From positions 37,272 through 101,271 of the forward strand of contig JBGFRI010000005.1 of the NCBI GenBank assembly GCA_041695225.1: a DNA stretch of 64,000 nt, given 5' to 3'. Positions 770-1,185 of this stretch are shown one piece after another. This DNA is from Deinococcota bacterium. GTDB taxonomy: Bacteria > Deinococcota > Deinococci > Deinococcales > Thermaceae. A model generated the notes under the pieces. It did not search any database, was not told the DNA's origin, and was given only the letters and a program-made list of their open reading frames with translations. Position 1 is the stretch's first letter. The number at the start of each line of letters is the position of its first letter. The position numbers and the translations under genes are program-made.

Positions 770-811
770 ACCTCCTCATGAACGGTGGTGCAAGTCTTGC
801 TATCCTACCTC

Positions 812-915
812 TGGTTGGGGAGTAGCCGCCCGCGTTTGCGGGTGTCTGGGTCGTCAATACGGGGCATAAACCCTCGGTCTGGACAGGTTCACCAGAACCT
901 TCGGCAAGACCACCA
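812..915 (+). promoter_or_regulatory. yybP-ykoY (Mn2+-sensing) riboswitch aptamer
   Basis: GGGGAGTAGC (817-826), hairpin CGCCCGC-gttt-GCGGGTG, TCGTCAATAC (851-860), hairpin AGGTTC-acca-GAACCT, GGCAAGACC (903-911); P1 pairs TGGTTGG (812-818) with CCACCA (910-915). Motifs match the family consensus as recalled; no covariance model was run. Confidence 0.85.
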
Positions 916-940
916 CGGCAGTTTTCCGTGGTGTTTTTTT
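911..940 (+). terminator. Intrinsic terminator forming the riboswitch expression platform
   Basis: CACCACGG-cagtttt-CCGTGGTG followed by 7 T; the 5' arm overlaps the 3' strand of aptamer P1. Confidence 0.85.
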
Positions 941-969
941 ACTTTTTGGAGAACAGGAGACCATGCCCG

Positions 970-1185
970 ATGAAACGAATACTCTTCAAGCTACTGGCAT
1001 TGTTGGTTGGGAAGTTTCTGGCAAGGCGTTTTGGTCGTGGTCGGCACCAGGGTTATGACGCTCGGCACTACGACCACGACTCATATTCCCGGGGCCACCT
1101 CCCTTACCAGGGTGGGTTTTTCAAGCCCTACAAGTACAGGCGGAAGAAAAGTAAGTTCAGGAGGTTAATGGACTGGCTGGATTAG
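970..1185 (+). CDS. Small (71 aa) basic His/Tyr-rich hypothetical protein downstream of the riboswitch
   Basis: AGGAGA RBS at 955-960, ATG 970; hydrophobic N-terminus, HYDHDSY core, KYRRKKSKFRRLMDWLD tail. Confidence 0.7.
   Translation: MKRILFKLLALLVGKFLARRFGRGRHQGYDARHYDHDSYSRGHLPYQGGFFKPYKYRRKKSKFRRLMDWLD

Follow-up and report, generated by a model that had tools for sequence, protein, structure and literature searches.

A candidate yybP-ykoY-type manganese riboswitch upstream of a conserved small-protein gene in Meiothermus

We analysed a stretch of 64,000 nucleotides (the window, G000:C22:37272-101271) from a 2.83-Mb metagenome-assembled genome (MAG, G000) of a hot-spring Meiothermus that is 92% complete, and concentrated on an RNA element near its start that had been predicted, from its letters, to be a Mn2+ riboswitch controlling a 71-amino-acid (aa) peptide. 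On the plus strand of the window the end of dxs (position 769) is followed by this riboswitch, a terminator, a Shine-Dalgarno sequence and a 71-codon open reading frame (ORF). Where labels are needed below, G-numbers denote species genomes, g-numbers genera, L-numbers extracted loci and P-numbers metagenome proteins. The features of the locus are as follows.

798-806, plus strand: putative extended -10 element TGcTATCCT, 5 nt 5' of the aptamer (from sequence and motif conservation)
811-916, plus strand: predicted yybP-ykoY (Mn2+) riboswitch aptamer, a four-way junction of P1-P4 (RF00080 match, lineage model R1, covariation)
812-818, plus strand: 5' strand of the P1.1 switch helix, UGG[U]UGG, pairing with 910-915
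817-825, plus strand: 5' strand of L1, GGGGAGUAG; its two leading G close P1.1 as well
825-827 with 903-905, plus strand: P1.2 (3' strand GGC), 100% paired, with CG/UA covariation
828-843, plus strand: P2 hairpin, GCCCGC GUUU GCGGGU, with compensatory changes in 5/6 pairs
845-883, plus strand: P3.1 - L3 - P3.2 arm, with compensatory pairs in P3.1 (5/9) and P3.2 (3/4)
854-860, plus strand: L3, UCAAUAC, an asymmetric loop between P3.1 and P3.2
885-900, plus strand: P4 hairpin, AGGUUC ACCA GAACCU (from sequence)
903-915, plus strand: 3' strands of P1.2 (GGC), L1 (AAGA, 906-909) and P1.1 (CCACCA, 910-915) (from sequence)
911-940, plus strand: intrinsic terminator with stem 911-918/926-933 (8 bp including 6 GC), loop 919-925 and U7 at 934-940 (terminator scan)
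955-959, plus strand: Shine-Dalgarno sequence AGGAG, 10 nt before the ATG (from sequence)
970-1185, plus strand: gene of a small basic protein of 71 aa, ATG 970, TAG 1183-1185 (ORF list)

The aptamer motifs, terminator, ribosome binding site and 71-codon ORF of the original prediction were all recovered at these positions, the aptamer by an RF00080 match and by covariation, and the terminator by a scan in which its 5' arm (911-918) likewise overlaps P1, with 5 nt in common with the 3' strand of P1.1 (910-915).

The RNA matched the Rfam family of yybP-ykoY riboswitches, RF00080, with 30.4 bits (E = 1.9e-6) in the window, where no other Rfam family matched, and with 28.1 bits (E = 8.5e-6) in a genome-wide search, in which it was the sole RF00080 match in the genome. 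A search with this model had been named as a check on the prediction; it produced the match, but at a score below the gathering score of the family (45 bits), and the Rfam search of the whole window at gathering threshold returned no match. The gathering score is an operational cut-off and not a biological feature. Among control genomes matching RF00080 with the same tool 2/9 were over the cut-off, and all 13 RF00080 matches in the Thermaceae and their order fell below it, the TerC-linked ones included, so that the threshold misses real Thermaceae members. One further match, at L032 (G012), has neither L3 nor the 3' strand of L1; we rejected it as a false positive and excluded it.

The cmscan alignment of the 3' half of the aptamer ran through the terminator to position 962 and was replaced by a hand-derived canonical fold ending at 915-916, which was projected onto a MAFFT alignment of 17 homologous leaders for a covariation test. 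In these 17 leaders 87% of the cells were paired and 20/34 pairs had compensatory changes on both sides; none of 500 shuffles scored as high, and slid controls were 28-51% paired. The seven peptide-linked copies alone were 92% paired, with compensatory changes in 10/28 pairs, although the alignment had been fitted to the model. This pairing suggests that the peptide-linked aptamers are being kept up rather than decaying as duplicates. The lineage model R1 scored the window aptamer at 94.7 bits, a value that is partly circular because R1 scores are so for sequences in its seed, as this one is. Since the Rfam model under-calls with this tool, since the 17 leaders covary, and since the peptide-linked copies show covariation of their own, the sub-threshold score is not disqualifying.

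The class is defined by a four-way junction, docking of L1 on L3, and a P1.1 switch helix that pairs alternatively with the expression platform (PMC12153347). The window aptamer has this architecture, with L1 formed by GGGGAGUAG and AAGA before the closing CC, an asymmetric L3 of the GUCAAUAC type, and a junction whose two coaxial legs (P1.1/P1.2/P2 and P3.1/P3.2/P4) have covariation to support them except in P4, which was assigned by sequence. The 5' strand of L1 was almost invariant over 17/17 aligned leaders and agreed exactly with the Rfam consensus, the L3 columns C42, G43, U44, C45, A46, U48 and C50 were invariant, and so was the block (C/G)(A/G)AGACC. P1.1 was 94% paired over the 17 sequences, and the two from g5, the order's other family, show GC/AU and UA/GC swaps. 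P4 has its own hairpin in each relative by eye, and its weak counted pairing support (56%) is attributable to misalignment of the P4 3' strand columns by MAFFT. Homologous leaders also stand 5' of genes that belong to the established targets of the class, namely TerC (in Meiothermus, g11, g14 and g15) and Alx-like TerC (in G023 and g5). As far as sequence can tell, 811-916 is a genuine yybP-ykoY-type aptamer with the geometry of a transcriptional ON switch.

Two natural variants of the junction were seen among the relatives. The peptide-linked aptamer of G023 (L004 1338-1434) has nearly lost P2, and the g5 aptamers (L023, L031) are without P4 and are three-way junctions like that of Escherichia coli alx.

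The terminator hairpin alone was predicted at -13.3 kcal/mol. In nearest-neighbour calculations that left out any ligand term, the terminator conformer had -44.9 kcal/mol at 37 C, as compared to -37.0 kcal/mol for the aptamer with P1.1 closed (OFF favoured by 7.9), and at 65 C the values were -16.6 and -12.8 kcal/mol (OFF favoured by 3.8). The terminator conformer is the more stable, and therefore the default state would be OFF. At low Mn2+ the terminator (911-933 plus U7) would capture the 3' strand of P1.1 (910-915) and transcription would end before the gene, while at high Mn2+ a metal-stabilised docking of L1 on L3 would lock P1.1, block the terminator and allow RNA polymerase to read through. 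Ligand-stabilised tertiary docking would be required to hold P1.1 against the default OFF energetics. We infer Mn2+ ON switching here by analogy with characterised transcriptional Mn ON switches. The ON-type members L. lactis yoaB and B. subtilis ykoY/yybP are alike in L1 and L3, in the four-way junction, in the overlap of P1.1 with the terminator and in the default-OFF state (PMC12153347, PMC8632737). The window RNA differs from them in its sub-threshold Rfam score and in its cargo, a 71-aa basic protein, soluble or marginally hydrophobic, in place of MntP, TerC, YybP or a P-type ATPase.

The ORF at 970-1185 is, to judge by its conservation, a real protein-coding gene. Homologues of 56-86% identity were found in six other species genomes of Meiothermus (G008, G017, G018, G022, G023 and G049), so that this long form is present in 7/26 species genomes of the genus; metagenome homologues (P0001, P0002, P0004 and further variants) bring the family to about ten sequence variants, every one of them from Meiothermus. 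The pairwise ratio of nonsynonymous to synonymous substitution rates (dN/dS) was 0.08-0.18, with synonymous sites saturated, and the indels among homologues were all in frame and all within the middle of the protein. A lack of conservation had been named at the outset as a result that would count against the ORF, and these values show the opposite. A profile search of 1.84 billion representative proteins returned 2 clusters only, a six-frame profile search of the whole family (all 68 species genomes) found the long form nowhere outside Meiothermus, and searches of Pfam, NCBIfam and Protein Data Bank (PDB) sequences with the peptide found no relative. Three marginal six-frame matches were rejected as family members, being PF13453 proteins with similarity in the tail only. 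The peptide had been called an orphan; it is instead a member of a small family restricted to Meiothermus that is already annotated as a hypothetical gene, with the entry 'hypothetical protein' in M. ruber DSM 1279 (ADD26800.1) and M. taiwanensis (WP_119361686.1).

Two observations on single members of the family are added here. A Joint Genome Institute (JGI) record (P0020) names a 71-aa member 'predicted component of type VI protein secretion system', a name to which neither sequence nor context gives support. At about 1440-1500 of L129 a tandem duplication of the start region of the peptide has produced an upstream mini-ORF of 11 codons (MKRIFFGDHTR), which lies 3' of the terminator and 5' of the true ATG.

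The linkage of riboswitch and peptide, for which a synteny check had been proposed, held in every copy inspected. The riboswitch lies directly 5' of the long-form gene in 7/7 species genomes (64.6-96 bits with R1) and directly 5' of the peptide gene on 5/5 metagenome contigs fetched (87-93 bits with R1). In 5/7 genomes the riboswitch-peptide unit follows immediately after dxs. The gene after the peptide varies by clade, being a 252-257-aa membrane protein in the clade of the window and a metallo-beta-lactamase (MBL)-fold hydrolase in the M. ruber group, and in G023 a strong terminator stands immediately after the peptide. The peptide is the only constant cargo of the linked riboswitch. In nine congeners that lack the peptide the MBL gene lies directly after dxs; one of these, G016, has a TerC leader nearly identical to that of G018, which carries the unit. 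These empty sites, that of G016 included, show that the riboswitch and the peptide gene come and go as one block.

A riboswitch homologous to the peptide-linked one precedes TerC in most Meiothermus and, elsewhere in the family, in three further genera (g11, g14 and g15). Almost all of the genus has this TerC unit, as compared to the patchy distribution of the peptide unit (7/26 species). Both units are present in G008, G017, G018, G022 and G023. As these five other checked long-form genomes keep a riboswitch-TerC unit and only G000 is without TerC, we rejected replacement of TerC by the peptide, and the peptide is better seen as an addition to the regulon than as a substitute. The phrase 'rather than a transporter', which had been used of the controlled gene, thus applies to the immediate product, a conserved small protein, but not to the regulon of those five genomes, in which the riboswitch-TerC unit is also found. 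A tblastn search of G000 (the MAG being 92% complete) returned no TerC homologue, and the genome has one riboswitch only; TerC homologues are present in 25/25 congeners, one to four in each. With an incomplete MAG, and with the two TerC paralogues lying side by side in relatives, this absence is more cautiously put down to a gap in the assembly. If the loss of TerC is real, the peptide gene would be the only riboswitch-controlled gene of the genome.

The peptide-linked and the TerC-linked units of Meiothermus and Thermus have in common the P1.1 pairing GGUUGG/CCACC, the platform CCACCACG...CGUGGUGG and a TGCTAnnCT motif, and differ in P1.2, P2, P3.1 and P4, which have diverged by compensatory changes, and in the gene that they precede. 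Within the genus the CCACCACG...CGTGGTGG terminator platform is common to all congener copies, and the TGCTAnnCT motif is found at equal distance upstream of both kinds of riboswitch. It is this conservation that points to a putative extended -10-like promoter at 798-806; a simple promoter scan of the window made no call at the element.

Downstream of the peptide gene, a 287-nt spacer separates its stop codon from the gene of the 257-aa membrane/PEGA-like protein (ATG 1473). The 3' half of this spacer (1330-1457) is conserved in the metagenome relatives L128 and L129 and contains a hairpin, CUGGAAG (1399-1405) with CUUCCAG (1420-1426); it matched no Rfam family, and may be a leader of the 257-aa gene itself.

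The proteins of the family are 61-72 aa long, have a net charge of +11 to +15 and a pI of at least 10, and contain 16-20 Lys plus Arg residues as against 3-6 acidic ones; the window peptide has no Cys. In the window peptide an N-terminal hydrophobic helix, conserved as MK(K/R)ILFKLLALLVGKFLARRFG, precedes a middle rich in Tyr, Gly, Asp, His and Arg, a GGFFKPYKY-polybasic block, conserved as GGFFKPYKYK(K/R)KKS, and a C-terminal helix, SKFRRLMDWLD, conserved as +F++L.DWLD. AlphaFold predicted helices at 2-21 and 62-70 with disorder between them (mean predicted local distance difference test score, pLDDT, 62). An amphipathic character of the N-terminal helix was considered and rejected, the hydrophobic moment (muH) being about 0. 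The description of the peptide as rich in His, Tyr and Lys fits the window copy, but the relatives mostly have Tyr at the His positions, and the HQGYDARHYDHDSY stretch that had been proposed as a core proved to be the least conserved region, with a His count of 0-4 among homologues.

In L124 (G007, M. luteus, Mlute_00856) and L123 (G014, a MAG) dxs is followed, at a distance of 28-57 nt, by a short form of 43-47 aa. It has the N-terminal helix, a basic stretch and LLDWLG, and is without the Tyr-rich middle. No riboswitch was found upstream of either short-form gene, which presumably is transcribed with dxs or from a promoter of its own. The co-occurrence of the Tyr/Gly/Asp-rich middle and the riboswitch is suggestive, and is seen in a few lineages only.

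Taken as a whole, these results are best explained by a Meiothermus small-protein gene under the control of a Mn-type riboswitch, an explanation to which we give a probability of about 0.8 and in which the response to Mn is drawn from characterised members of the class. Its core, namely that the gene is real and conserved and that the riboswitch which controls it is a genuine one of the Mn type, we consider highly probable from the sequence comparisons. Several observations weigh on the other side. The Rfam score of 30.4 bits is below the gathering score; the unit is missing from most Meiothermus species and is therefore dispensable; the transcriptome supplement of M. ruber strain A has no gene entry between dxs and the MBL gene; and there is no terminator between the peptide and the MBL-fold gene in M. 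ruber-type loci or before the 257-aa gene in the window, so that downstream genes may be co-regulated. With respect to a site of action at the membrane, the N-terminal helix is marginally hydrophobic (maximum 19-residue Kyte-Doolittle mean of 0.8-1.4 in nine homologues, against a benchmark for a single-pass segment of about 19 residues with a mean above about 1.6) and has two embedded Lys/Arg residues, so that membrane anchoring is no more than possible; and no physical or genetic link connects the protein to TerC or to any transporter.

As to what the protein does, we tentatively rank first, at clearly less than an even chance, an accessory factor acting at or near the membrane in the response to Mn excess. 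Such a protein might modulate TerC-type Mn export or metalation, or alternatively restrain Mn import; direct binding of Mn by the protein is unlikely. This ranking was made because the known targets of the class act at the membrane, because the unit keeps company with a riboswitch-TerC unit, and because two terminal helices are typical of small regulatory proteins; the 'small regulator of Mn homeostasis' of the original prediction is a possible description. A bolder version, which we regard as doubtful, would make it the first riboswitch-controlled small-protein regulator of metal homeostasis, induced by Mn excess, with the terminal helices docking to the membrane or to a partner, TerC for instance, and the disordered Tyr/Arg-rich middle, gained along with the riboswitch, tuning Mn export, exoprotein metalation or Mn uptake.

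A parallel to such a factor is E. coli MntS, a protein of 42 aa reported to act on the exporter MntP. MntS is repressed by MntR when Mn is high, and it increases the availability of Mn. Both are small proteins tied to Mn homeostasis, but they have no sequence similarity, and the Meiothermus peptide, whose riboswitch would by prediction induce it when Mn is high, does not belong to the MntS family.

Alternatively, the protein could be a disordered polycation that shields or condenses RNA, DNA, polyphosphate or acidic lipids during a flood of Mn2+. The extreme positive charge, the predicted disorder of the Tyr/Arg/Gly-rich region, the lack of a globular fold and the lack of a relative in Pfam, NCBIfam or the PDB would all suit a protector of this kind. 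The argument is, however, one of composition, with no partner or context in its favour, and it leaves the conserved hydrophobic N-terminal helix without an obvious role, so that we think it unlikely.

The Mn2+ buffer of the original prediction, or a Mn2+ chaperone, in which the His/Tyr/Asp-rich middle would bind excess Mn2+ and the peptide would serve as an inducible sink, does not stand up well. It is true that only the long form, under its riboswitch, has the Tyr/Asp/His/Gly-rich middle, which the short form without a riboswitch lacks, and that a central Y-D(-P) motif and the acidic D-x-x-D end at the C-terminus are fairly conserved. However, His (0-4 per homologue) is not conserved, the middle is the most variable part of the protein and bears all of its indels, and a polycation with 3-6 acidic residues against 16-20 Lys and Arg (charge +11 to +15, pI at least 10) is a poor ligand for divalent cations. 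A buffer is thus improbable, also on electrostatic grounds.

It is similarly improbable that the yybP-ykoY-like fold mainly senses something else (Ca2+, alkaline pH or temperature, for example). A response to pH (alx) or to Ca2+ (S. pneumoniae mgtA) has been published for members of the family, the Rfam score is sub-threshold, and the host is a thermophile in which P1.1 would be marginal at 65 C; however, the L1 and L3 core sequences agree with the family consensus, and TerC, which Mn riboswitches are known to target, is under the control of the genus's paralogous copy.

That the ORF is a leader or passenger, and the real output the 257-aa membrane protein or the MBL-fold hydrolase of M. ruber, is very improbable. 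In its favour are the lack of an intervening terminator in the window and in M. ruber-type loci and the synteny of the 252-257-aa membrane protein within the window's clade. Against it are purifying selection on the peptide at the amino acid level, downstream genes that differ by clade while the peptide is constant, the strong terminator right after the peptide in G023, an MBL gene that follows dxs in nine congeners with no riboswitch, and a spacer before the 257-aa gene that has its own conserved, hairpin-containing leader.

In the literature that we searched, the targets of Mn riboswitches were MntP, TerC/Alx, YybP and P-type ATPases, that is, transporters or putative transporters, and nothing relevant was found on the pairing of the riboswitch with the peptide, on the peptide itself, on PF13453, or on riboswitches for Mn in either Meiothermus or Thermus. 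The riboswitch adds a member to a known class; what is new is its cargo and the behaviour of the unit in gain and loss. A conserved non-transporter mini-protein with a riboswitch dedicated to it suggests that there are components of the Mn-excess response that are invisible to homology-based annotation. Since the inducing signal can be read from the riboswitch, the function of the peptide is directly testable, a starting point that most uncharacterised small proteins do not have. The unit is present in the cultured type strains M. ruber DSM 1279 and M. taiwanensis, and natural comparators exist in close species with the empty site and in M. luteus with its short, riboswitch-less form.

The C-terminus of the peptide resembles that of PF13453 (Zn_ribbon_TFIIB) proteins, both having an acidic/Tyr-rich stretch, a polybasic run and a terminal SK-h-x-x-L-h-D-h-h-D. 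With hhalign the likeness to the PF13453 tail extended over 15 columns (47% identity, E 6e-4, probability 28%); it is a motif-level likeness of 15 residues, and the peptide has no CxxC...CxxC zinc ribbon. The only other ORF in G000 with the tail motif is in the plus frame from about 73853 of G000:C14 and encodes a PF13453-type zinc-ribbon protein ending ...NPYDTDDDDYYKRHGKRKSKLGRLFDIFD; the motif is also found on homologues of g12.

Further Mn riboswitches were encountered in the course of these searches. Besides the TerC one, nearly every g14 and g15 genome (these being Thermus-sized genomes) has a second, and the six second copies inspected (L086, L088, L091, L092, L093 and L096) all precede a membrane metallopeptidase of PF04298 (Zn_peptidase_2, YugP-like, HExxH), a family that we did not find as a Mn-riboswitch target in the literature searched. 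Other Mn riboswitches of Meiothermus, at L077 (G008:C3), L078 (G010:C35), L082 (G049:C236) and L083 (G001:C5), precede a Cys-rich protein of 135-146 aa (CPDCENGEW...CKSCG) or a short relative of 74-76 aa (CRWVPATFDRVE...). Neither of these has a Pfam family above threshold, and they look like a second uncharacterised cargo that is not a transporter. The 5.4-Mb MAG G023 (L079, L080) has four Mn riboswitches, which front TerC, the peptide, an HtrA-like protein of 439 aa and an Alx-like TerC of 346 aa.

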